Shown here: piece by piece, positions 5,322 to 57,880 of the stretch
How the letters are laid out: each line of letters begins with the position of its first letter
Position numbering within the stretch: the first letter of the stretch is position 1
Assembly: GCA_964016885.1 (NCBI GenBank)
Contig: OZ024742.1
Location: 116,002,001 to 116,066,000 of the forward strand
Source: Eledone cirrhosa
Lineage: Eukaryota
Length of the DNA: 64,000 nucleotides
Direction: 5' to 3'
Program-made: the position numbers and the translations under genes
The notes under the pieces: generated by a model
What the model was told of the DNA's origin: nothing
Database searches by the model: none
The model's input: the letters and a program-made list of their open reading frames with translations, nothing else

Positions 5322-5434
5322 TATATCTTTCACCGAGAGTGATTTTTCATTGCATCTCTTCTTGCCATGATATCCGGATTACTTTGAGTTCTTCATACGG
5401 ATTGGACACTACCGTAAACTCTTGGTAGATTTAT
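5322..5434. repeat. Dispersed repeat end (...gagttcttcatacgg...ggtagatttat) abutting (TA)n
   Basis: Related copies at ~120-190, ~960-1000 and, inverted, 57922-58036. Confidence 0.65.
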
Positions 5435-5452
5435 ATACATATATATATATAT

Positions 5453-7835
5453 ATTGGAATAAATGCTCTGAAATAGCGATATATATGTGAATATAGACAT
5501 AGGATATTCGAAAATATTCTGTATGTTCATAATAAACATTTTGAAGACCTAATCGCTATAGAATAGAATACGTCACGTATTACAATTAGATTCTCGATAA
5601 AAGCAAGGGAAGTAAGTCTACGCGTTTCATTCTCGTTAGAAATCGTCAGGACTACATATCCAGTGCTTTCATCGAGAATGACACAGCTAGAGACTTATAG
5701 AATACTTAGCTGTGTACAGGAACTGGTTTGAAAGAGCGGTTGCCGGTCCGGCAGAAATTAGAAATTGGAATAAATGCTCTGAAATAGCGATATATATGTG
5801 AATATAGACATAGGATATTCGAAAATATTCTGTATGTTCATAATAAACATTTTGAAGACCTAATCGCTATAGAATAGAATACGTCACGTATTACAATTAG
5901 ATTCTCGATAAAAGCAAGGGAAGTAAGTCTACGCGTTTCATTCTCGTTAGAAATCGTCAGGACTACATATCCAGTGCTTTCATCGAGAATGACACAGCTA
6001 GAGACTTATAGAATACTTAGCTGTGTACAGGAACTGGTTTGAAAGAGCGGTTGCCGGTCCGGCAGAAATTAGAAATTGGAATAAATGCTCTGAAATAGCG
6101 ATATATATGTGAATATAGACATAGGATATTCGAAAATATTCTGTATGTTCATAATAAACATTTTGAAGACCTAATCGCTATAGAATAGAATACGTCACGT
6201 ATTACAATTAGATTCTCGATAAAAGCAAGGGAAGTAAGTCTACGCGTTTCATTCTCGTTAGAAATCGTCAGGACTACATATCCAGTGCTTTCATCGAGAA
6301 TGACACAGCTAGAGACTTATAGAATACTTAGCTGTGTACAGGAACTGGTTTGAAAGAGCGGTTGCCGGTCCGGCAGAAATTAGAAATTGGAATAAATGCT
6401 CTGAAATAGCGATATATATGTGAATATAGACATAGGATATTCGAAAATATTCTGTATGTTCATAATAAACATTTTGAAGACCTAATCGCTATAGAATAGA
6501 ATACGTCACGTATTACAATTAGATTCTCGATAAAAGCAAGGGAAGTAAGTCTACGCGTTTCATTCTCGTTAGAAATCGTCAGGACTACATATCCAGTGCT
6601 TTCATCGAGAATGACACAGCTAGAGACTTATAGAATACTTAGCTGTGTACAGGAACTGGTTTGAAAGAGCGGTTGCCGGTCCGGCAGAAATTAGAAATTG
6701 GAATAAATGCTCTGAAATAGCGATATATATGTGAATATAGACATAGGATATTCGAAAATATTCTGTATGTTCATAATAAACATTTTGAAGACCTAATCGC
6801 TATAGAATAGAATACGTCACGTATTACAATTAGATTCTCGATAAAAGCAAGGGAAGTAAGTCTACGCGTTTCATTCTCGTTAGAAATCGTCAGGACTACA
6901 TATCCAGTGCTTTCATCGAGAATGACACAGCTAGAGACTTATAGAATACTTAGCTGTGTACAGGAACTGGTTTGAAAGAGCGGTTGCCGGTCCGGCAGAA
7001 ATTAGAAATTGGAATAAATGCTCTGAAATAGCGATATATATGTGAATATAGACATAGGATATTCGAAAATATTCTGTATGTTCATAATAAACATTTTGAA
7101 GACCTAATCGCTATAGAATAGAATACGTCACGTATTACAATTAGATTCTCGATAAAAGCAAGGGAAGTAAGTCTACGCGTTTCATTCTCGTTAGAAATCG
7201 TCAGGACTACATATCCAGTGCTTTCATCGAGAATGACACAGCTAGAGACTTATAGAATACTTAGCTGTGTACAGGAACTGGTTTGAAAGAGCGGTTGCCG
7301 GTCCGGCAGAAATTAGAAATTGGAATAAATGCTCTGAAATAGCGATATATATGTGAATATGTAGTCCTGACGATTTCTAACGAGAATGAAACGCGTAGAC
7401 TTACTTCCCTTGCTTTTATCGAGAATCTAATTGTAATACGTGACGTATTCTATTCTATAGCGATTAGGTCTTCAAAATGTTTATTATGAACATACAGAAT
7501 ATTTTCGAATATCCTATGTCTATATTCACATATATATCGCTATTTCAGAGCATTTATTCCAATTTCTAATTTCTGCCGGACCGGCAACCGCTCTTTCAAA
7601 CCAGTTCCTGTACACAGCTAAGTATTCTATAAGTCTCTAGCTGTGTCATTCTCGATGAAAGCACTGGATATGTAGTCCTGACGATTTCTAACGAGAATGA
7701 AACGCGTAGACTTACTTCCCTTGCTTTTATCGAGAATCTAATTGTAATACGTGACGTATTCTATTCTATAGCGATTAGGTCTTCAAAATGTTTATTATGA
7801 ACATACAGAATATTTTCGAATATCCTATGTCTATA

Positions 7836-7839
<4 letters not shown>
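5453..7839 (-). mobile_element. 311-bp x6 tandem array plus ~1.5 inverted units, one hammerhead per unit (retrozyme-like)
   Basis: attggaat unit starts at 5453, 5764, 6075, 6386, 6697, 7008, 7319. Strand switch at ~7357-7360 through an ATAT microhomology. Inverted block runs to 7839. (TA)n flanks. Hammerheads on - at 5612-5655 and every +311, on + at 7361-7404 and 7672-7715. Confidence 0.9.
7361..7404 (+). ncRNA. Minimal type I hammerhead (family D; 8 copies in the array)
   Basis: gtagtc CTGACGA t-ttct aacg agaa-t GAA ACGCGT A gacttac. Palindromic helix III, GUA site. In complete units it is enclosed by attctcgatgaaagca/tgcttttatcgagaat. Confidence 0.85.
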
Positions 7840-7869
<30 letters not shown>

Positions 7870-7870
<1 letters not shown>

Positions 7871-8690
7871 GCTTGAAGTTAGAAGGCCAGAACAACGCAG
7901 GTATGGATATAGAATATAAATACAAATGCAAAAGGCATCGCTGACAATTAGTCTTTTACCTAAAATTTATTTGAATATCCTGATATTTCGAGATAATAAC
8001 TCTTCTTCAAAGGGAAGTAAAGGGGTTAATCCTGTGTTCTAATTAGCTTGCCAAGTTATGCTGACCGGAAATATTACTGAAACTCCATTCTATTTCTAAT
8101 GTCAAAGAGTGATGGTTAGGTGGATAAAGAGTTGTCTCCCTTTAAAAGGGTTTGAACATGTATGTCTAAGTGTAAGTGTCTGAGTGTGGGAGGATATATT
8201 GATATGTAAATGTGGGGGTTACATGCTCTATCATGTTAAAACTGGTCTATGTGTGTGCATGTGTATATGTGAGAGAGAAATAAAGGTGTAAGCGCGCTTG
8301 TGTGTGTGCGTGAGCGTGCGTGTGTGAGTGTGAGAGGATACGTGGAGATGTAAGTGTGGGACTAGGTGCTTTATCGTGTTAAACATTGGGTGTTGAATTC
8401 TAGTATGTTATTGATTGGTGGTTGTGTTTTGTCTATAATTAGTGCTTCTTTAATTCTAAGATTGCTGAGGTTTCTTTCTTCAGCTGCTATCCTAACTATT
8501 ATGTTTTTGCATTTCACTAGGTGTTTCTTAAATGAGGAAGCATTAGTGTTGACGTGTTCTTTTATTCTAATGTGAAGTGTCTGGTGGTGCTACCTATGTA
8601 AATATTGCTGCATTTGTCGCACTCTAATCTGTATACGGCTTAAGCCTGGTGGCATAGGTCTGTGTCGTCGATATATATTCCTGTTAAGTT
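7870..8690 (-). mobile_element. Penelope-like element 3' fragment (GIY-YIG endonuclease remnant + 3' UTR)
   Basis: Minus strand ~8640-8400 reads VYRLECDKCSNIYIG...EHVNTNASSFKKHLVKCKNIIVRIAAEERNLSNLRIKEALIIDKTQPPIN. Degenerate hammerhead (TTGAAGA..GAAATATC) at ~7979-8013. Confidence 0.75.
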
Positions 8691-9399
8691 GGAAGAACCC
8701 ACCAAAAATCATATTATTTTGTCACTTCTCGAACTATACACTTAATACAATAGAAACAGCAACACCAAAGAAAACGCTGTATATACACCAAGATGCAAAA
8801 AACTGGTTTTAGTAATGCAGTGACAATATGCAATAAAACTAATACTAGTAATGATGATTTCTAATTTAAGCACAACTCCAACAATAAATGCTGCGTTGTC
8901 AGAATTAGAGGGTTTACACTAAGACATGAGGGTACGAAAGAAATGCAATGGGTCTGATTGATGGTGGTGAGGCCTGGCAACAAATCCACAATCCGGTCAC
9001 TGATGGACAACGATGGGCGTATGCTACTTTATCCCAATCACATGTGTGCGGTTTTTCATCAGGTTTGCTCAACAGTTCGGGAGTTTTGCCTACCTCCACA
9101 GCTTGCTGCGGCACCCAGCCTCAGAGATGGAAGGTTACGAAACGGAGATAAGAGCCGCTGAAATACGTTGGGTAACTGCGTGTGGAATACGTCACCTTGA
9201 TTCTATGGTCTATGATACGAGCTATACGCTTAGATTCGATATTTATTCGGTGAACTCTTGGCAGACGCCTACTACAACTAACAGCAGAAGGGGAGAATTC
9301 TCTGTTATGTGAGCCGAGTGCGAGGTGTGCTACAAAGAAAGGGTCCGAACAATGGGGATTATGTATATAAGTGTAGGTCTCTTTATATACTAAACACAA

Positions 9400-24579: not shown

Positions 24580-27500
24580 ATGCCTAGAAAACGTTCCAGA
24601 TCATTATATGGAAGGTCATCTTCCGAAGTTAAGAGAAAGAAAACACAGCGATCTGAAGAAATCGAAGAAGTTCGGCATGCCCGTCTAGCTGCTAACAGAG
24701 CCCAAGCAGCTTTAGCACGAGCACACCGTTTGGATAAAAGGGAACAAAGGACTGCTGCTACACGAGAACAACAAATTAAGGAACAGCAGAAAATAAGACG
24801 AAATACTAATCACGCACATAGTTCCAATGCCCGAGCAGGATAACAAGCCACAAGTAAAATGAACTGGCTGATGGATGCTTTTTCTTATGACCCTCAAAAG
24901 GACTACAGCAGTAATCCACAAATCAACATTGGGAAAATGAACAAATGCTGCCAGTATTGTGGTGCCAAGAAGTGGGCAGCAGAAACACCATGTCTATCCT
25001 GCTCAAAAGGCAAAGTGAGCCTTAAAACAATACAAGAACCTCCTGAATTTCTGAAGAATCTGCTCTTTCAGCATACACCAGAAGCACGATACTTCAATAA
25101 ATACATCATGAAATATAATTCTGGCTTTCAAATGACATCTTTTAGGGCTGACAGGAATGTGACTGACTTTAGATTCTGTACAACTTATAAAATTCAAGGA
25201 CAGTGTTACCACTTAATGAGTGGCCTTCTCCCACTTTCACAGGAGCCTCACAAATTTGTGCAGGCTTACTTCATGGGTGAAAATGAAACACAGGCCTAAC
25301 AAAGATGTACCAATGTCCATGGCGGTTTACAGTTCTACATAGTCATAAATCTACCAGAAATGCTTCACCAACATCACATGTACGTCAGTGTATTTAAATA
25401 TGCACTGGAGCATATGAACAACACTACAGATCGTAAAATCATCATTAGAGCAGACAAACGCCCAGCTTCAGAACATGAACGCAGATTCAATGTACCTGTC
25501 ACTGATGAAGTTGCAATCATAATGGTTGATGAACAGCATGAACGATGTGACATTGTTTTTCAAAAACAAAGTGGACATTTGGAGCAAATTTGTGAAACTC
25601 ATAGAGTTATGATTCACGACAATATCTGCTCATCTTTTGGAATGGTCAAGATGGATATCATTTTCAGCTACGGCAGATCAACCCAGGAATGCGACGAGAT
25701 ACTGGCCGATCGATCAGCTGCAAAGAATTCTATGCTTATCATTTCATGGTACGTGATCAGTTCAACCAAGTTCTGCGATTCAAAGAAGTGACCAGCCAGT
25801 TCATGGTGAATATGTATGCCAAAATTGAAACAGAAAGATTGGGTTTTCTTCGAAGGAATCAAACTAAGTTGAGGGCAAATAACTACATCCACCTTAGAGA
25901 TGCCATCAATTCTGATGTTGACCCAAGAAATATTGACCAGCCAGTCATACTACCATCAAGCTTCACGGGAGGACCACGTTACATGCATGAACGTACGCAA
26001 GATGCAATGGTCTATGTCAGAAAATTTGGTCGGCCAGATCTCTTCATTACATTTACATGCAATTCAAACTGGTCAGAAATATCAAAAGAATTATTTCAAA
26101 ATCAAAAACCAAAGGATCGACATGACCTCATTGTTCGGGTTTTCCAGGAAAAGCAAAAAAAAAACTCATCTGGCTCCTAAAAGAAGGAAGAATCTTTGGT
26201 GAGCTTAGTGCTTGGATGACCACTATTGAGTGGCAGAAGAGAGGTCTTCCTCACTCTCACACACTAATCTGGTGCAAGAAGATAAGACCAAATGATGTTG
26301 ATTAGATCATTTCAGCAGAGATGCTTTATAAAGGTGGTAATCCTGAGCTCTTTGAAACCATCAAGTCCACACTCATTCATGGTCCATGTGGAGTCATCAA
26401 TCCAGCCTCTCCCTGCATGAAAAATCAAAAATGCAGCAAACCTTTCCTAGAGCTTTTATTAGGGAAACTTCGACTGACAATAATGGATACCCCCTTTATC
26501 GTAGACGTAGACCAGAACAGGGAGGCAATACTGCAAGCCTAACAGTTCGAGGGGAGGAGCTGACCATAAACAATCAGTGGGGCGTCCCACTCAAAAGATT
26601 TTTGTGTAAACTTTTAAAACTGATATCAATATTGAGTATTGCAGCTCCGTCAAGTCAATCCTATATGTCACAAAATATATCAACAAGGCCAGTGACATAG
26701 CTACCTTTATTATTGACAAATAACTCAATGATGGTGGGCTGGATGACGTCAAACGGTATCAAACAGGTCGATACATCTCCAGCAATGAAGCTATCTGGGT
26801 AATTTTTCGATTTGATATTCACGAACCCACCCAACAGTGGTCAACCTCGCAATCCATCTGGAAAATGGACAGAGAGTGTACTTCACTGAGATCACTGCTC
26901 ATCAGTTGGCACAAGCATCACATGACACTACACTAAGTGGTTTCTTTAAACTCTGCCAGAATGATAAATTTGCTCGATCCCTCCTATATTCTGAAGTCCA
27001 AACATAAAACACCTGGACCAATTGCAAGACCTGGAATCGTAGAAGGCAGTGTCAGTTAGTGGAAGGTCATGAAGTCAAGAAAACTGATGTTATTGGGCGT
27101 GTGTACAATGTACATCCAAACAACAGAGAATGTTTTTATTTACGGCTACTTCTGCATATTGTTCGAGGACCAACGTCATTGGAGGATGTTAGGTGCTTCA
27201 GAGGAAGCGAGTGCGCAACATACCAAGAAGCATGTAAACAGCATAGACTCCTGCATGACAATGGACACTGGAGGAATTGCCTAGAAGAAGCAGCAATCAC
27301 TCAAGCAGCCAGTCAAATAAGACAATTATTTGCTATTATGCTCACAGTATGTGGAATTGATGAAGCTCATCTACTCTAGCAGCAGTACGAAAACAATATG
27401 TCGGACGACTATCTACACCTAGCCCGAAGACATCATGGCAATATGTATATGGAATATACCCCCAGGATTTACAATCAAGCTCTCTGTGACCTGTCCCATC

Positions 27501-28996
27501 GAGTTCAGGCAATGAATAGCACATTAACTAACTGCCGGATGCCAGAGCCAGATGAAGAAATGGAGGTAGCACAAGACATTTTTCAGGAGACAAACTACGA
27601 TATTCAAGCATTGCGTAAGTTTGTGGATGAAGATGAACCTCTATTGATGGATGACCAGAAATACGCCTACCACAACATTATCGAAAACATTCAAAATGAC
27701 AAGGGGAAGACTTTTCTTCATCGATGCTCCTGCTGACACAGGCAAGACATTCCTCATAAACCTCCTGCTTGTAAAAGTTCGCCAAAAGTAACATATTGAC
27801 CTTGCTGTGGCTTCACGTGGCATTGCAGCAACACTTCTGGATGGAGGAAGAACTGCATACTCCATGTTTAAGCTGCCTATAGATCTCACATGGCATGAAC
27901 AATCTTTTTGCAACATCAAGAACTCACCCAAGGGCAAGCTTCTGCAAATATGCAAAATGATAATTTGGGATGAAGCTATGAGCCATAAGGGAGCAATTGA
28001 AGCTTTGGACCGGACGATAAGGGATCTGAGAGAAAATAGTTACATAATGCGAGGAGTGACAATGGTTCTTGCTGGTGATTTCAGACAAACTCTGCCTGTA
28101 ATTCTTCGAGAGACTCGAGCTGATCAGATCCATGCCTGTCTGAAAACATCCTATCTCTGGCCACACTTTCAGCTGCTGAGCCTTACAAACCAACATGCGA
28201 GTGCACTTAACTGGTGACGAAGGTGTCAGTGAGTTTGCCATCCAACTACTTAAATTGGGATATGGACTTCTTGAAAAGGACTCCAATGACCATATTCAGT
28301 TGTCCTTTGGCCATATCATTGACACAGAATAAGAACTGATTGCCAGAGTGTTTCCAAACGTTCAGACCAGGCAATGTGATCCGAAATGGCTCTGTGAACG
28401 AGCAATCTTAGCACCTAAAAATGTTGCTGTGAAAGAAATCAACAGATCGCTGCTAGAGATGTTCCCGGGAGAGAAATATGCTACAAATCAGTTGACACAA
28501 TCACTTCTCACGACCAGGTTGTAAACTATCCAACTGAATTTTTGAACCGTCTTGAACAAGCGGAAATTCCTCCACACAACTTGATACTGACGCTTGGAGC
28601 ATCGGTTATGCTACTTCGCAATCTGGATCCTCCAAAACTTTGTAATGGCACAAGACTCATCATCAAAAATATGATGTCCTATGTTCTAGAAGTTGTAATC
28701 ATGTCAGCAAAATTTGCTGGTGACAATTGTTTCATTCCCAGAATACCTCTGAAGCCAACTTATTTGCCATTTGAATTTCAAAGACTTAAAATTCCGATCA
28801 GGGTCAGTTTTTCCATGACCATTAATAAATCTCAAGGGCAATTATTGAAAGTCGTTTGGTTGAATATGGCAGATCCTGACTTTTCAGATGTCAACTCTAT
28901 GTTGGCACAACAAGGGTTGGGAATCCTTATTGTCTCTTCATTGTGGCACCACAGGGCAAAACCAAGAATGTTGTTTATCCAGAGGCTTTGGAATGA
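24580..28996 (+). pseudogene. Helitron Rep/helicase (HUH endonuclease + PIF1 helicase), multiple stops and frameshifts
   Basis: CQYCGAKKW..CSKG zinc finger. Rep motifs GRPDLFITFTCN, EWQKRGLPHSH, YVTKY. Helicase motifs DAPADTGKT, IIWDE, GDFRQTLPV, MLLRNL..LCNGTR, FSMTINKSQGQ. Confidence 0.95.
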
Positions 28997-29981
28997 GCAA
29001 TGTTGTAATTCCCCATTCAATGACAATACACACAGATCTTAATTCCTTAGTCATGTAGTTTGCAAGGAATTCTGAAGCCGCAAATTTACTGCAAGGTATT
29101 ACTTTGGAATAATATGCAGGTATTCCCGGGCACCTCTGCTATATAAAGTGAAGACTGTGTTGGGTAGAAATAGCAGACAAATTTCTTTCAAATCCCACCT
29201 TACTTTCTCAGGTATGTATATATGTATGAAGCAAAAATGAATGTTTCTATGTGATAACTCGATCTACTAGAAATATTAGCAAAATCCATTTCAAATCACA
29301 AACAACTGTCTTACACACATACATGTTTGTGTATGTATCTATGTATGTCCTGTGAGCCACTATAACTGATGGTATAGCTAATAGAAATAGAAAACAAATC
29401 TCCCTCAAACAAGATCCTACTGCCATAGAGGCAAAGATTGGTGAAAGCTACAGTGTACGAATTTAAATACACTTTTCCCGAATCACAGAAATGAGTAAGT
29501 AAATGCTTCATTCAATCATTACCAAGGCTAAATTTATTTTCTTATTTTATTTATGGTTTTTAAAATTATCTTTACAGGTTGTTTTAATTTCAGAGGTTCA
29601 GATTGAGCCAAAGAAAGAAAGAAAGAAAGAAAGAAAAGGATAAATAAAAAAAAATCTAAATTTATTTTTTTGGTCATGCCCTTTTCAATGACAACATACC
29701 TATTGATTCATCTATGAGTAAAGCATTATATATCCTGACTGTAATAGGGAGCAGTATTCAACTAATCACCACTGGAAAAAACTAATATTTTTATCTAGAT
29801 GATTTACTTTGACCAAACCGCAATAAATATTCTGCTATAATTCCTACTTTGGTTAAAATTCAGCAATCATATTTGAATGTCAAATATTTTTTAATGTGTG
29901 CCAAATATATTGTAACTTTCATAAAATACCCAGGCATCACCGGGTAGCTCAGCTAGTATATATATATATATATATATATAT

Positions 29982-34554: not shown

Positions 34555-35547
34555 ATGACTAGGGCCAACTTTTTAGATGTCACCCTCGAACTAGATACTT
34601 CCCTCTATTGCCCGTACCACAAACTTAACGAGTTCCTTAGATATATTAATGTTAATTATAACCATCCCCAAAACATCACTGATAACTTAGTAAAAAGTGT
34701 CTCAATTAGAATCTCTGGCCTCTCGGCAAATGAAGATACATTTAACGTCTCCGCCTCCTACTACAATGACGCCCTCGCCCGCACGGATTTAAAGAAAAGA
34801 TAACTTACCTAGAAACCGCCGCAAGACTACCTAGGAGGAATAGGCATAGGCAGATTAATTGGTACACCCCCCACCCGCTTCAATAGAGTGGTCTCTACAC
34901 CTATAGCTAGGACTTTCTTCACTTTGCTGAAAACACACTTCCCCATACAACATAGGTACCACACCATCTTCAATAAGAACACAATAAGACTATCCTACTC
35001 CACTACACCTAACCTAGCTAGGAATATAGCCAATCTCAATTCTAAAAAATTAAATAAGCCAACTACCTCCGAACCCAATCCCGGAATGAAGCCTTGTGTA
35101 ATTGCCAAAATAAGGAAGCCTGCCCACTTGAAAAGAAATGCCTGACAAATGACATCGTATGCAAATGTGATGTCATCTCAGGCATCGATGATAGCAACAA
35201 CAAAAAGACTTACATCGGCATGACTTCCAATAACTTTAAGAACGGTGGTATGCTCATACACACTTTTCAGAAGACCGCACAAATCAAATCAGACAACACA
35301 CGCCTCCTAATTCTGGGACCTCAAAAAGAACTACCCCCCATTCACGCTTAAAAGGAAAATACTCCAGAAAGCGCGCTCATACAAGGGAGGGCACAAGTGC
35401 TGCGACCTTTGTATCTCAGAGAGCTACGAAATATTATTTGCCAAGGGCGCGCTACTGAGCAAACTCTCTGAACACTGCCCGAATTACATGCACAAACACT
35501 TTGCAAATTTCAAATATATTCAGCCAGTGTTAATGCCAGATGGCTAA
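34555..35547 (+). pseudogene. 5'-truncated Penelope-like ORF (RT end, thumb, CxC..CPL linker, GIY-YIG)
   Basis: NFLDVTLEL, YINVNYNHP, YHTIFNKNTIRLSYS, CNCQNKEACPLEKKCL, KTYIGMT, CDLCISE. Starts directly at (TA)n. Confidence 0.9.
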
Positions 35548-35836: not shown

Positions 35837-35906
<70 letters not shown>

Positions 35907-35935
35907 AAAGAATAGAGGTGTATATATATAAGTAT

Positions 35936-38176
35936 AAGTGAAGAATAACATGGTCAACAGTACAAACAAGGAGATTTATTTACAGTCTAACAATTGTTTC
36001 CATGATAGAGTTGGCTAGAAATTGCTAAACACTGAAGACAGCATAACTCAATTTAAAATACATACAACTCCATCATTTCATCAGAAACTGATAAGAAATA
36101 CAAAATACATGCGTATGAATTCAAATTACTACATCAATAATAGTATTAACGAAAAAGAAATAAAGGAAGGAGACAGATGGAAAGGAGAGGGGACACAAAG
36201 AAGAACGGCGAAAGAGAGAACGAAGATATAGTTAAATGTATAACTGGCAAAGTTACGAAATTAAACTATCACATCAAAATAAATATAATATTAATAATAA
36301 AGATACAGATAGAAATAAAGAAGGGGGGATGTAGTAAAGGCAGAGAACAAAAAGAAGGATGAATAAGGAAGAGGAGAAAGAGATAGAGGAATATTAAGAA
36401 AAAGCGAGGAAGCAGGGAAGGATACTAATTATTGATGAATACGGGATACATACCAAATAACAACACACTTAATGTTAGTAATACTTCCCACAACTATAGA
36501 AACAACAAACCTAGGTCTAACCGCATAAATTGGCAGCATACACCTAATTTAAATAAACAGAATGCTAATACAAAAACCACTAGTAGCCATAAAATATGCA
36601 GAAATAGAAACTACTTATGGTTTAATTCAATGTTTAACTCCTCTATTAAAACCAAGCTTCCTTTCACTTTCTTTAAATTAGTTGACAAACACTTCCCTAA
36701 AATTCATAAATATCATAAAATCTTTAATAGAAAAACTATCAAACTATCATACTCCACTCCCAACAACATAGAATCGCACATTCACAACATTAACTACAAA
36801 ATAATTCATAATCCAAGTAGCCAGCATGTAAGGTCCATATCACCAAATACAGACCACACGCATATTACATCATTGCAACCGAACACACGCCCGAGCACAC
36901 CATCACAATACATCAACAAACCTAATTCGCAGCCCATACATAACAATCTTGAAAATGATATAGTAGAACCGGCGCATAGGAAAGCATTTCTATGTAACTG
37001 CCACTTACCTGACAAATGCCTTCTACTAAATAGATGCCTGGAGAAGAATGTAATATACCTGTGTACTATCAACTCAGGTAGCTTGGCATGGTAGTACATT
37101 GGTTCCACCGCAGGTGTTTTTAAAAAAACCATGGTACGTGCACACACATTCTATGATTAATAAGTATCAATCAAATACAACAATTCTCGCCAACAAAATC
37201 TGGCAACTCAGGAATGCAGGCATTGAATACGAAATCAGTTGGTCAATACTTTCAAAGCTAAGGCCTATCAAACTGGTATGTCCCACTGTAGGCTCTGTAA
37301 TATGGAGCTTTTCCAAATTCTTAATATCAGTAAAATTCTTCTGATCATTTTATCCTAACATGTAATACATCGCAAATTAACTAATTTAAATATTCAATTA
37401 TTTATTTATTTAGTTATTATTGATCTATTTATTCTCATCTCTACGTTTCACATATTATACCTTTTTTTATAACAATAGATGTAAATTGTTTATTTATTTA
37501 TCTATCTATGTATTTATCTATTTATCTATCCTTTTATTTATGCATTTATTTATTTATTTATCTCTTTGCTTAAATCTCTGTTTCTTATTTGCTTTCATCC
37601 CTGCAGTAATGTATATTCGTCCGTCTGTTTATCTTCCTTTTTCTCTCCTTCCTATCCCGTAATCATCAATAATTATTATCCTTCCTTGCTTCTTTCCTCC
37701 TTCTTTTTCTTCCTCTATAGCTTTCTCAGCTTCCTTATTCATCCTTCTTTTTCTTCTCTGCATTTACTACATCCCCCCTTCTTTCTTTCTATATGTATCT
37801 TTATGATTAATATTATATTTATTTTGATGTGATAGTTTGATTTCGTAAATTTGCTGGTGATACATTTAACTATATCTTCGTTCTCTCTTTCGCCGTTCTT
37901 CGTTTTTCCTCTGCTTTCCATCTGTCTCCCTTCCTTTATTTCTTTTTCATTAATACTATTATTGATATAGTAATTTGAATTTATAAGTTTACCGTTACGC
38001 ATGTATTTTGTATTTCTTATCAGTTTCTAATGAAATGATGGAGGTTGTATGTATTTTAAATTGAGTTATGCTGTCTTCAGTGTTTAACAATTTCTAGACA
38101 ATTCTATCATGGAAACAATTGTTAGACTGTAAATATATCTCCTTGTTTGTACTGTTGACTATGTTATTCTTCACTT
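35936..38176 (+). mobile_element. Penelope-like element: inverted pLTR + truncated ORF (36450-37344) + 3' pLTR
   Basis: 35936-36449 is the reverse complement of 37653-38176. ORF has WFNSMFN..DKHFPKIHKYHKIFNRKTIKLSYS..CNCHLPDKC..VIYLC..YIGST. Confidence 0.9.
35983..36090 (-). ncRNA. Type I hammerhead with long helix II (family F) in pLTR
   Basis: cagttt CTGATGA a-atgatggagttg...caactctatcat-g GAA ACAATTGT T agactg. Sister copy 38021-38129 has CTAATGA. Confidence 0.8.
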
Positions 38177-38356
38177 TTTGTATTACTCCAAGATAAATTT
38201 ACAAGTGAAGTCATAAACTCGTCACCCACGTAAACCTCTTGTTGAGTCACACAGAACTGTCCGTGATAAGTAGTTATCACAGACCCTTATCGGATTACCT
38301 TTAACGATTTATTGTTATCCTACATTTATATATATATATATATATATATGTGTGTC

Positions 38357-39407: not shown

Positions 39408-40687
39408 CAAATAAAGTGATCTACAATAGTAATGCTGATTACTATAACTCAGCGCTAGCTAAAGCATCCCACAGTCATAGGTTCAGCTATAATCCTAAGG
39501 GACATGATCGAGATGATCCAAGGGGGCCCCGGGCCAATACGCTCAGGGGCATGAGTCACCCATCTAATACCTCCGTGACCAGTAGTAACACTCCCAGACC
39601 CCTATCCGTCACCACCCCCTGTAGAAGGTCCAGCATACCCCACCGGTCTAATACCTACAACGCTGAAGACCACTGCGGTGCGCAGCATAGGCACTCCTGC
39701 ACCGGCCCCACAATCCACCGAACCCGCGCAGCTTTTTAGCCCCACGGTGGGCCCATAAAACCCTCATGATAGTGACCGCCCCGCACACCTGAGTGACACC
39801 AACCGAGCTCGACCTGAGCTGTGCACAACCCCGCGATGGACCACGGCGGACACCCAACTACCCCGCAAGAATAGGACTAGGAAGGTCACATGGTATAACC
39901 CTCCGTACTCGATGGGTCTACGTACCAGCCTGGCTAGAACATTCTTTAGAGTACTTGATAAATGTTTCCCTAGGACCTGCAAATACCATAAAATATTCAA
40001 CAGGCACACGGTGAAGCTTTCGTACTCAACCACACGCTCCGTAGCCCAGTACATAGCTGGCATAAATAGGAATAGGCTCATTGCCTCTAATACCACCATA
40101 AACACCGGAACCATCCAACGGAACCAGCACGCGGGACGCACCAGATCCCGGGCAGGCCCAACTAGCACAGCGGAACCCAACAACCCGGTACTGATTGCTG
40201 CTGCTTCCTAGCCCACCCCGAGTGATGGTAACCACGCGGTACATGTACAGGGCTTAAGAATTCATGCAATTGCAGAGACCCATCACTATGCCCCATTAGT
40301 AATGAATGCATAACAAAAAACGTAGTCTACAGGTGCAAGGTCACAACCTCTCACTCGGAGCACCACTATATAGGATCCACAACGACGAGCTTCTAAGATA
40401 GGTGGTATAACCATCGCCATTCCTTTAACAGAATAGAAAAGAGGAAACATACGGCCCTTTCTGAATTGATCTGGAAGCTCAAACTTGAAAAGACTCCGCA
40501 CTCTCTGGTCTGGTCAGTGGTTAGAAAGGTTCCCCCAGACATAGGTGGGTCTGGTATTTGCAACCTCCGTCTTAGTGAGACACTAGAGATACTTCATGAC
40601 GGAACCAAGCTATTAAACAGAAGGGCCGACTTATTCGGCGCCTGCAGACATCTATGGACGGGAACTTTCCTAAAGTTATATGGATAA
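39408..40687 (+). pseudogene. 5'-truncated GC-rich Penelope-like ORF (thumb + GIY-YIG)
   Basis: [85 protein letters not shown]. Probable 3' UTR to ~42750. Confidence 0.9.
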
Positions 40688-41399
40688 ACCCCGGTTCTGG
40701 CCCCCCACAACGCCCTCCGCCCCCCTGTAGGTCCCCTACACCCCGTACAATGACCAATGGGCAACAACACCCACCCATAATTTGTAGTCCCTACGGTGGA
40801 TTGTGCACCGGATCTTCTACTTGTTAGGAGTCAGCAAAACCACGTTTATTGAACCTGAGGACCCCCCCCCCCTGGGAATGGCCCACACAGGAAGAACCAT
40901 TATTCTAAGGTACTAACCCTATACGCATGAATGAGTGCCCGCACCGTGCGTTGTGTGTGTAACTGGGATTACGTGAATGTAGACACTCATGTGAACTCAA
41001 CGTAATACCAATACCCCAGGTTGCATTTGAAAAATGTTGGAGTGTATGCTTAAGAGTATATTTGTATATGCTCTCTTGTATGAGTGCACATGTGTATATA
41101 GACATACACACGCATCCAGAAGTATAAAAGTGTGGCTGGGTGCATGTACCTATATATGTCCGTACTAAGGGATTCGCCTAATCTCCAAATACCCCAAGCA
41201 ATTGCAGTGAAGATATATATCACACTCTACTTTTGTCTAGTCTAAACAATAACTTTTCCAAACACCCACTTTAATTTTCCTTAAAAATAACACACACCTC
41301 GTTTTATATCTGCCATATACTTGGTTTTGGGGGCCTCTGTTGTATACATATTCACGTGTGCGTACATACATATATATACATACCTGTATGGATTTGTGT

Positions 41400-45239: not shown

Positions 45240-47560
45240 AGAAGGAAGGTCATTTACAAAAAAATTACATTTAAATTTTAAAGAAAATAGGATCATTTTG
45301 AAGGTGTATAAGAATATCAAATTAAAAATACTTCTGAAAGTGCAATTTTGGCGGTGTCTGCAAGAAGAAAATAATTCTGTTTTAAGATTAATAGAGTTTT
45401 GACAATTAATTATATAAAAGATTTCCTCGATACATAAGTTACGGAATCTTGAGAAAGCCATCTTTCGGTATGCATGTGCTATCGAAATCGTTCTCCAAGA
45501 TATTGAATCGTCTATATTGTTGTCTTTTATGTTCCAAATTAAATGTGAAAAGTGAAGTGGAAGATTTGTTATTGAACTTCTTAAATGTGTGTTTATGGTT
45601 AAACCAGCATTCTTGGAATGTTGTCGAAGTGGCACCAATATAGTTAAATACTTTGTCTCTAGTTTTAACTGCATTTATAAGTTACCTTTTTGTCTAAGCA
45701 ATTATTTTTAAAGGGCAGTTTGATTTAAATCTACAGTTACATTTTCTGGAGTTGTTGTTCGGAACGGTACTATTATTCTGAATATTGTTGTTAGAAATAT
45801 TTGTATTGCTTCTTTGGTTAGTTTGGTTAGGGTTTAAATTTACGTTTCTATTATTAATTCTATTTATATGTTGTGCTATGTTCATAGTAGTAGAGTAGGA
45901 TAGTTTTATAGTGTGTCTGTTAAAAATAGAGTGCTATCTGTGGGTTTTAGGAAAACATTTATCTAGTGCTTTAAAGAATAGCTTTGCTAAAGATGATTTA
46001 ACGCTTAATGAGAATGGGGGAGAGTACCAAATGATATTTGTAGTTCTAGTGTTTTGTTTGGTTAAGTGTTTCAGTTAAATTGTTTATTATTATTATAATT
46101 AATTTTAGGATGATTTGTCATGTCATTGTTATCTATGTATTTAATTGTATTCGAGTATCCTGCTCTATGTAAAGTTTCGTTGTAATATTCTGCCTTATCA
46201 TCAAAAATATTTTTATTAGCAGAGATGTGTGAAATCCGTTGTTGACGCTATTGACAATAGTGTTTTTAATACTTCTAGGATGATTAGAATTGAAACTTAC
46301 GTAACTTAGATTTTCATTAATTTTATGGAAAGGATAGTAAAGACCTGTACTAAGGTTTAAGGTTACATCTAAGAAGATAATAATGTTGTAGTTATTCTCT
46401 ATTTCTATCTTAAGATTGTAGTTGTTGAAAAAGTGTATTGTGGATTTCTTTTTCCTATTAATTTCACTATTGCTATGTTTTTCAATTAAAAGTGACATAT
46501 CGTCACGATATAAACCTCCGGTCATCTCTGGCATTTTCCAATGCAGTACATTATTAATAAATAATCCAACGATGTCCTTTACTTGCGCCGAGTCAGATGA
46601 TCCCAGAATGATATCAAAATTGTTTTTTTCTATCGGCTCTTGTCCAGAGCTGATTATTAAATTCAATTAGTGTTTTACGTGCTGTTAGAATTATATTCAT
46701 TTCATCATTAGATAGGTATGTATATTTAGACGCGTAGATAAGTGCCTTATTAAGTAAGCTAGGGTTAATAGAGGAGTAGTAATTTGCAATATCCATTTGA
46801 ATGAATGTTTTGTTATGTTTTAATTTTATGTTATTGAACCAATCTATAACTTCATTAGTACCGTTCCATAGTTTAAGGTGTGATTTTTCTTTAAGCAGTG
46901 GTATAATTATATCTAATATATGCTTGCTAATTATGCCTAAGTCCGATTTAGATGGTGCGATGAGTCTGACTGGTAGTTCAATTTCAAAATTTCTTTTGTG
47001 GTCCTTCAGGTTAATCTTCGGTTTTCTGGGTATAAAGGGTTCAGTCTAATCTTGTATGCCTAATTTATAAATAATTTCAGAAGCTTCTCTATTTAACGTT
47101 GAAAGATCATTTGATGTTATTTTGTAGTTTTTCCTGAGTTCTTTCAATTTTATAAGGTTATTATATTCGTCCTTTTCCATACCATATAAATTATTTGTTT
47201 TGTCAAATTTTATCAGGATCCTTTGTTTTTTCTAGATTGTCTATTTTATTCTTGAGGCCTTTAAGGTACTCCTGGCCGATACATTTTTTTAAACATTTTT
47301 TTTTATATCATAGATATTACTTCATTTTCAAATTCGGTTAGTAGTGTGTTGCTAGGTGGATTCTTCTTAGATTTGAAGATAAGGTCGAAGTTGTAACTGG
47401 ATTTATTTATTTTGTCCTCGGATTTTCTATCAAAATGGAAAGCACGCAATCTAAGTCTTCGTATAAAGGAGTCAGATTTCTCAATTAGTTGTTTTAGATA
47501 TTCCTTATTTTTAGGTAAGGATACATCTTTTACAGAAGAAGAAATCCTAAAGAATTCCAT
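45240..47560 (-). pseudogene. Penelope-like RT + GIY-YIG ORF (probably Naiad clade), disrupted
   Basis: KDVSLP..LIEK..FIRRLR N-terminus, DIANYYSSI, GSSDSAQVKDIVGL, GLYRDD, FLDVTLNL, SNHP, WYSPPFS, CNCRFKSNCPL, YIGAT, NLCIEE, SCRH. Confidence 0.92.
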
Positions 47561-54421: not shown

Positions 54422-55136
<715 letters not shown>

Positions 55137-57157: not shown

Positions 57158-57235
57158 ATGTGTGTGTGTGTGCATATATTCAAGTAAGGAATATACACAC
57201 ACACATATATATATATATGCATACCCATTATTTTC

Positions 57236-57880
57236 GTTACATTCTAGGAAGGAATATGACGTCACTTTCAGCTTATATCTGGAGTCTAAAAGACAACCAC
57301 ACCCAATTTAAGTACCACTGGGAGATCCTAGCTACGGCAGGATCGTATAACGGAAATAGAAGACCAAGTGACCTCTGCGCGGCTGAGGCCCTGGAAATAC
57401 TCTACACCATAGACCACATGTTAAACAAAAAATTGAGGCAATTTCGGCTCGTAAACATAAATTGCACAAAACTTTCCTCTATTACAGCCCCACATTATAG
57501 CCTAACGGATAGTACGATCTATACGTGGATATTTTACGTCTTGATGTTGTAGCTACGTATATGTTGTGTTATACCACTACTTATTTGCATAGGTAAGTAT
57601 ATATTACCTGTATATTTTGTGAAGGGAACGTTTCCACGAACCAATGTATCGTCTTCCTTCCTGTCTGCCTCCGGTTGCAACGTTTTTTGAAATATCCACT
57701 TCTGCGTTTACAGATTGACTTTGTTAGTTTCAGAAGAGCCCGTTAAGGGTTAAAGCAGCGATTCTTTGCTTAAACTTTAATCTGTTATTTTAATAAATAT
57801 TTGCTCTACGGTTTTTATATATTTGATATATATTTATTCTTATCGAGCCCTCTTAGGATTTTAGTCTTCAAATTTATTAT
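57236..57880 (+). mobile_element. Penelope-like GIY-YIG C-terminal fragment + 3' UTR
   Basis: TSLSAYIWSLKD..WEILA..YNG..DLCAAEALEI..LNKK. Degenerate hammerhead at 57726-57776 (CAGAAGA gccc..gggt TAAA). Confidence 0.8.

Follow-up and report, generated by a model that had tools for sequence, protein, structure and literature searches.

Does a tandem array that reverses its strand part-way represent a satellite repeat, or is it the DNA record of a small self-cleaving RNA? The array that raises this question lies at positions 5453-7839 of the window, a 64,000-nucleotide stretch of the Eledone cirrhosa genome (contig OZ024742.1). A sequence-only reading of it had proposed a retrozyme, formed by rolling reverse transcription of a circle of about 311 nt by a Penelope-like enzyme. 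Tests across the whole family of related insertions support this proposal, in which the identity of the enzyme is something we infer.

The anatomy of the locus agrees with that first description. Six 311-bp units begin at 5453, 5764, 6075, 6386, 6697 and 7008, with 0 mismatches each, and the 311-bp periodicity extends up to 7360, or 6.14 units. These identical units form the long arm (5453-7360), with the hammerhead sense on the minus strand. The inverted stretch, which had been put at about 1.5 units, is an exact 483-bp reverse-complement match of 1.55 units and forms the short arm (7357-7839), with the hammerhead sense on the plus strand. The two arms share 4 nt, ATAT, at 7357-7360, which bears out the switch through ATAT microhomology and defines a central head-to-head junction between monomer positions 125 and 271. 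Monomer positions are counted on the hammerhead-sense strand from the predicted ribozyme cut. On this scale the outer end of the long arm lies at position 166 (site A, the long end) and that of the short arm at 131-140 (site B, the short end). The array does sit within (TA)n, with a short, imperfect run on the left (about 5432-5454), whose last bases overlap the element end, and (AT)15.5 on the right (7839-7869). The unit is about 35% GC, varies from 310 to 312 bp over the family and, as first noted, has no open reading frame, the longest ATG frame read round the circle being 30 aa in sense and 17 aa in antisense.

Each unit had been credited with one type I hammerhead, and reading the core consensus by eye finds it in 8/8 units here, in the form GUAGUC-CUGACGA-UUUCUAACGAGAAU-GAAACGCGUA^GACUUAC, which reads along the minus strand in the long arm and along the plus strand in the short one. 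Six lie in the long arm (5612-7210, minus strand), with predicted cuts after 7174, 6863, 6552, 6241, 5930 and 5619. The short arm carries two on the plus strand, one at 7361-7404, predicted to cut after GUA at 7397/7398, and one at 7672-7715, with its predicted cut at 7708/7709; the stretch between these cuts, 7398-7708, makes up one monomer. Helix I consists of 6 pairs and one bulge, and in helix II a U-U mismatch lies below 4 pairs. Helix III is indeed palindromic, AC-GC-GU lying within the self-complementary ACGCGU. Short palindromic helices III are described as typical of animal hammerheads that act as dimers (PMC4209133, in its accessible part), but only one of nine Xenopus retrozyme dimers is reported to cut in vitro in the available text of 10.64898/2026.07.22.740005.

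Folding predictions place the hammerhead at the tip of the long flanking hairpin that had been said to enclose it. This hairpin, at 7648-7737 on the plus strand and in every unit, extends helix I and is more stable than shuffled sequence (z = -5.5, 0/200 shuffles equally stable). The predicted circular monomer is likewise strongly self-paired (z = -3.4, 0/100 shuffles as stable). Its minimum-energy fold retains helix I and lacks the active hammerhead core. Rfam gives no hammerhead family in the window at gathering score (0 matches) and only a noise miRNA match at E <= 10 over 7340-7860, and the ribozyme is therefore identified from a by-eye reading of the core consensus. Among 43 loci chosen independently of the core, that core is intact in all 41 that are readable. 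Position 7, loop II and the helices vary in this set with pairing kept, and the changes in helices I and II are compensatory. Differences in length and sequence between haplotypes (310, 311 and 312 bp) cluster at monomer positions 2-3, which directly follow the predicted cut and would be the ligation point of a circle; helix I pairing is kept throughout.

The genome-wide copy search that had been proposed for this unit reveals a large family, with insertions at over a thousand places. A 31-nt core pattern has 13,928 exact matches in the 3.0 Gb assembly, its reversed control has 0 in the genome, and the pattern has 0 among the metagenome and viral contigs searched. At 310 bp per unit, these 13,928 units add about 4 Mb of palindromic DNA. 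The head-to-head layout recurs in 13/13 of the best-matching other loci, and the first 16 loci in order along C1 comprise 12 head-to-head insertions, three with a single arm and one cut by a gap. In head-to-head insertions the RNA-sense 3' ends face outwards into (TA)n, and no tail-to-tail layout occurs among the insertions examined. Over the first 200 Mb of C1, paired insertions measure 2.25 kb at the median and 0.24-15 kb at the extremes. The window itself holds a second member at 54540-55136, diverged by about 4%, with 1.1 + 0.8 units head-to-head in (TA)n and one B end and one A end. This retrozyme family is young, non-coding, dispersed and mobile.

Several observations accompany this survey. 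Run X1, which may represent the source sample, assembles into numerous branched contigs of very high depth whose loose ends run into TA. Runs X4, X5 and X6, from three other organism codes and three studies, yield one closed 340-nt contig each, of a haplotype that also occurs in genome G000; such contigs would look alike whether they came from a tandem array, a circle or carry-over, and carry-over is the plain reading. A bacterial promoter scan, a tool ill-suited to animal DNA, stays at chance level.

The ends of the insertions show that the inversion is real, but not the local accident it might seem from a single locus. It is the normal product of priming twice, at two fixed internal positions. 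The outer ends lie at about position 166 (A) or at 131-140 (B), where AU-rich bases match the TA target, and the junctions to TA genome-wide number 1,150 of A type and 1,367 of B type. The phase of the ends is confined to two internal sites 26-35 nt apart. No element ends at the ribozyme cut (0 junctions genome-wide), though GUA gives an equal TA match there. In the first 200 Mb of C1, 53/53 paired ends are A+B, with 0 A+A and 0 B+B (p about 1e-16). A further 72 ends in this region are unpaired, 47 of them B ends; among 14 of these that were inspected, nine have an A-like end at 168-173, one has a 7-nt A stub, three are single-arm insertions, one ran beyond the stretch and none is B+B. A separate tally of ends over 44 loci includes 19 picked as A+B pairs and is not a test of asymmetry. 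Family insertions lie in (TA)n or AT-rich targets, and duplications of 10-14 bp flank the four loci whose targets hold informative non-TA letters. The A+B ends and the inverted copy match the signature of Penelope insertions, an inverted 5' copy with a one-sided tail, and the A/B offset corresponds to this Penelope 'tail'.

The inner ends behave quite differently from the fixed outer ones. Central junctions are spread anywhere over the unit (chi-square p = 0.61), and 2/88 inner ends coincide with the ribozyme cut vs 2.0 expected if uniform. An overlap of at least 2 nt marks 23 of the 33 junctions that lack inserted bases, where 18% would be expected, and short insertions occur at 11/44 central junctions. 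This body of evidence bears on the suspicion that tandem-plus-inversion is an artefact of assembly or library, born of a collapsed repeat or of fold-back reads. Polishing could account for perfect unit identity, but neither collapse nor fold-back would be expected to yield locus-specific haplotypes and junction positions, strict A+B pairing, duplicated target sites and variants in single units across dozens of loci. An artefact is hardly credible.

What was copied is recorded in the alleles. Fifty loci resolve into 25 haplotypes, each locus being fixed for one across the two arms; of 167,693 bases, 83 are minority calls. The majority sequence of their locus is carried by 484/560 full units, and a recurrent unit variant is found in 6/50 loci and absent in 44/50; by reading, several recurrent variants are slippage or CpG sites. 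Very young loci, with 0 internal differences, already hold 12-15 units.

These figures weigh on the idea that one- or two-unit Penelope-type insertions later grew into satellites by unequal exchange, their arms being homogenised by conversion, a local-amplification scenario of the kind discussed in the accessible text of 10.64898/2026.07.22.740005. Growth of this sort has a trace in one 45-unit arm (G000:C1:97461500-97476500; L201, L202), where a higher-order pattern of unit variants is repeated, so long arms also grow through local duplication, or are misassembled; one further arm, on C6, is longer than 39 units. As a general origin it is very improbable, since partial sweeps are rare, as the unit majorities and the 44 loci without a recurrent variant show, and very young loci are already long.

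Rare alleles reveal how narrow the template was. Allele 91G occurs in 58 units at nine places genome-wide, on several different haplotype backgrounds, and 116C in 35 units, of which 32 lie in three loci and three are singletons. In 6/6 rare-allele loci inspected, the allele is present in every pass read, in both arms. The pair 91G+116C is found in the assembly only at the 5453-7839 locus, in 8/8 passes. Single-unit changes have thus repeatedly spread over whole two-armed insertions, which requires a monomer bottleneck followed by copying over many rounds.

Were a long linear transcript the template, variants of its individual units would turn up at corresponding places in the two arms, and this expectation is the basis of a mirror test. 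At 44 loci with 49,749 shared positions, 0 variants are mirrored at equal template position in both arms vs 34 in one arm, a result whose power falls if source arrays are far more uniform than the average array. A further 12 loci (6,478 shared positions; L210 and C6all, with an end not reached, left out) give one mirrored vs nine one-arm variants. A second insertion at the edge of L074 is excluded from the set. At L220 a variant is mirrored in both arms, in one pass only, which points to a multimeric template or inter-arm conversion there; a monomer circle alone cannot yield it without conversion between arms.

The main competitor of a circular template is twin priming by a Penelope-like enzyme on long linear multimers, either array transcripts or RNA-to-RNA copies, with the circle a by-product or an occasional bottleneck. 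The mirrored variant at L220 speaks for it, as does the finding that uncleaved RNA is the main in vitro substrate of the anole enzyme (PMC11167929), and it would fit the A+B ends, the duplications and the central microhomology equally well. It is nonetheless unlikely. One mirrored variant stands against 43 in one arm, no run-off at the ribozyme cut is seen, and rare alleles, on several backgrounds, are fixed in every unit of the two arms. Linear copying alone can neither lengthen arrays nor fix a new single-unit mutation. The assembly, from which the source array of a rare haplotype could be missing, holds none for the 91G+116C haplotype.

Rolling copying could also have taken place on two separate circles, one for each arm, held by an asymmetric enzyme dimer. 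A dimer of this kind could force an A start on one RNA and a B start on another, and sibling circles of one array share their haplotype. Against this, 0 two-arm loci are discordant (both arms with at least 2 passes), one singleton site aside, while 25 haplotypes coexist, and alleles at about 0.4% frequency are common to both arms. Two circles are a poorer prospect than a linear multimer.

The best reading, to which we give a probability of roughly 0.7, is that one circular monomer is twin-primed by a Penelope-like dimer, copied in rolling fashion and fixed by microhomology joining of the cDNAs. Array transcripts would self-cleave after GUA, probably as double hammerheads formed through ACGCGU, and the cleaved monomers would be ligated into the predicted 311-nt RNA circles. 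A GIY-YIG endonuclease would then make a staggered cut in (TA)n, as the target-site duplications and end sequences suggest. One DNA 3' end would prime at about 166 and the other at about 131-140, positions that are seen directly in the insertions and that are assigned here to a putative enzyme; AU-rich bases at both match the TA target. Each reverse transcriptase would roll several times round one shared circle, a step to which the allele patterns point, and rolling on one circle would give every unit of both arms the same sequence. The two cDNAs would join at their far ends by the short microhomology visible at the junctions and template each other's second strand, leaving the head-to-head structure.

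Stated at its strongest, every typical insertion would be a record of one RNA circle with the two reverse transcriptases of one Penelope-like dimer chasing round it, from starts 26-35 nt apart that come from the two ends of the cut. We consider this full version a little better than an even bet. If true, it would provide genomic proof that ribozyme-made circles are genuine retrotransposition intermediates, and would explain Penelope tandems, inverted ends and the one-sided tail by one mechanism.

How an enzyme might recognize such a circle is suggested by the sequence around the two start sites. The 'tail' between site B (7528-7537) and site A (7563), at 7528-7563 on the plus strand, is present in every unit and is a candidate enzyme-binding module. 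Between the two sites, at 7539-7552 (+), lies a 14-nt motif common to older sister families, whose invariance in those families follows from the selection of the sample. The sister families have units of 314-322 bp (4,102 matches to one motif variant) that align with the 311-bp unit over its whole length and carry a different hammerhead. Just 5' of site B, at 7492-7519 (+), every unit forms a hairpin that shows compensatory changes in the sister families: 11 cells are changed on both sides vs 4.0 in shuffles (0/500; relatedness uncontrolled), and 95% are paired vs 16-73% when the hairpin is slid. Several sister-family copies end in TA about 25 nt past the start of the motif. A hairpin-plus-motif module that is kept while the ribozyme is exchanged would be a candidate landing site for the enzyme and, if the one-circle reading is true, a portable signal for integrating circular RNA. 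Sister families are seen at L137, L142, L150, L175, L179 and others. Some copies read UUGAUAAG where CUGANGA is expected, and an intact core may have been missing as part of the sister family spread or decayed.

The genome also holds a candidate for the enzyme. P0001 is an intact, young family with a 758-aa frame comprising a reverse transcriptase plus, at the C terminus, GIY-YIG, and it is represented by L157 (G000:C1:14208964-14211237, minus strand) among about 25 full-length copies at 96-100% identity. We take it to be Penelope-like by its reverse transcriptase aspartate motifs, GIY-YIG and CCHH, and also because of its hammerhead and insertion ends. Its hammerhead has 3,303 matches in the genome, overlaps the start of the coding frame and resembles that of the retrozyme in core and helix II. 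In eight of ten head-to-head pairs of P0001, one end in TA is short and the other long. The 3' region is long and TA-rich, and the tail, at about 60-70 nt, differs from that of the retrozyme in length and sequence, which makes P0001 a candidate partner enzyme and not a proven one. A search for relatives returns 1,199, nearly all without a name. Pfam gives nothing at E <= 0.01 for four Penelope proteins, with only a sub-threshold GIY-YIG match on P0001, and a PDB search gives nothing significant. Other Penelope families are abundant in the genome. The retrozyme tail motif stands beside no Penelope ORF in 60 loci sampled, and a sample of ten long-frame copies of other Penelope families shows no clear homology to the 311-bp unit. 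At L156 (G000:C1:83678500-83686500), the 3' end of the P0001 family forms a tandem array that repeats about every 1.08 kb, has 12 listed hammerheads and includes a TA tract in each unit; this unit is possibly derived from a pLTR and amplified as a circle or locally.

Traces of such elements surround the array in the window. The right flank, 7870-8800, is a decayed repeat with a GIY-YIG-like remnant and copies about 91% identical, and in its paralogues the ends, which run into (TA)n, fall at two sites separated by about 40 nt. These two end sites indicate that 7870-8800 is an older Penelope-type element and that the retrozyme landed in its terminal TA run. No empty site was obtained through these paralogues, the flank being the end of the element itself, which stops in (TA)n. 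Five Penelope-like coding remnants are found by tblastn at 34555-35544, 35903-38325, 39855-40705, 45333-47536 and 57214-57429, the second of which is flanked by TA runs and has its 5' part inverted. Other families contribute hammerhead-like motifs at 2676 and 3145 (+), 38575 (-) and 39082 (+); these motifs include a pair 469 bp apart, a P0001-family hammerhead fragment and one motif upstream of a Penelope remnant. The broken frames at 24844-29042 we take, from their motifs, to be Helitron-like Rep/helicase.

Metazoan non-LTR retrozymes are tandem, non-coding units of 150-450 bp with GC < 50% and a type I hammerhead each, and in the published model the circle is the template on which a reverse transcriptase makes tandem cDNA, Penelope-like elements being the candidate partner (PMC7229834, main text). 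Size, GC content, hammerhead, lack of coding capacity and a self-paired predicted circle are all shared by the 311-bp unit, which at the level of sequence has every feature of non-LTR retrozymes; the circles here are predicted from sequence. Non-LTR retrozymes have target-site duplications, where any are present, of more than 4 bp, and the 10-14 bp duplications agree with this. Even the 2-bp helix III and the U-U mismatch at the base of helix II recur in axolotl HHR_Amex2, as given in the same main text (PMC7229834). Two other assignments are ruled out: an autonomous Penelope-like element, by the lack of a reverse transcriptase plus GIY-YIG ORF in the unit, and a plant LTR retrozyme, whose LTRs carry type III hammerheads and whose duplication is 4 bp, by the type I topology, tandem units and 10-14 bp duplications.

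The differences lie in the architecture. The main text of PMC7229834 describes plain tandem repeats, with the word 'inverted' absent from it, and gives neither priming sites at fixed positions nor a tail nor allele evidence by locus, whereas the 311-bp family is head-to-head and has all of these. According to the accessible part of a review, retrozyme repeats carry no conserved motif that points to a partner (PMC7761336). Vertebrate non-LTR retrozymes, presented as derivatives of Penelope, also co-occur with Penelope-like elements and have related hammerhead-bearing ends (10.64898/2026.07.22.740005). Their link to Penelope, in the available text of that work, from which the words 'tail', 'orientation' and 'initiation' are absent, is through co-occurrence and pLTR homology, while that of the 311-bp family is through its insertion signature. 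The 311-bp unit is not the pLTR of any coding element found.

The family's insertions resemble those of Penelope-like elements. The green anole enzyme PAc, a predicted dimer, cuts and extends both strands of AT-rich DNA, and its two adjacent internal initiation sites delimit a one-sided tail of 30-40 nt; in vitro, hammerhead cleavage is dispensable for its insertion and initiation proceeds without target homology (PMC11167929), two points that speak against the best reading given above. A head-to-head inverted 5' copy is common to PAc, Adineta Pen (PMC3846280) and Naiad/Chlamys (10.1101/2021.04.23.441226), as here, and the one-sided 30-40 nt tail, AT-rich or (TA)n targets and duplications of about 10 bp given in the accessible accounts of these elements are found in the 311-bp family as well. 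Unlike them, the 311-bp family has no ORF, both of its arms are multi-unit and its AU-rich starts match the target. Head-to-head inversions were explained earlier by self-priming on an antisense template (PMC3846280, accessible part) and the tail by endonuclease resolution (10.1101/2021.04.23.441226, accessible part), where the origin of Penelope tandem and inverted insertions and of the tail is also called undefined. The data favour two primings on one sense RNA over these explanations.

The retrozyme class, the circle model and the Penelope link are thus already published, and the circle as transposition template and Penelope-like enzymes as its agents stand there as hypotheses. A literature search, with subscription papers and the PMC7229834 supplement outside it, found no report of head-to-head or twin-primed retrozymes and, at equal scope, none of fixed paired priming sites or of allele evidence for a monomer template; 'Penelope', 'twin priming' and 'hammerhead' combined gave 0 papers. 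What the present genome adds is thousands of very young, marked insertions that discriminate between models, together with an intact candidate enzyme. A defined 311-nt substrate, two mapped start sites and one protein would make a direct in vitro test, and without this reading some 4 Mb of palindromic DNA would be classed as satellite. The closest parallel to the architecture outside these systems is LINE-1 twin priming, in which both target ends prime on one RNA and leave an inverted 5' part with a microhomology joint. In LINE-1 the RNA is linear; the first priming occurs at its poly(A) end, and the internal site of the second varies. The two sites of the 311-bp family, unlike those of LINE-1, lie next to each other at fixed positions, and each product is longer than one unit.
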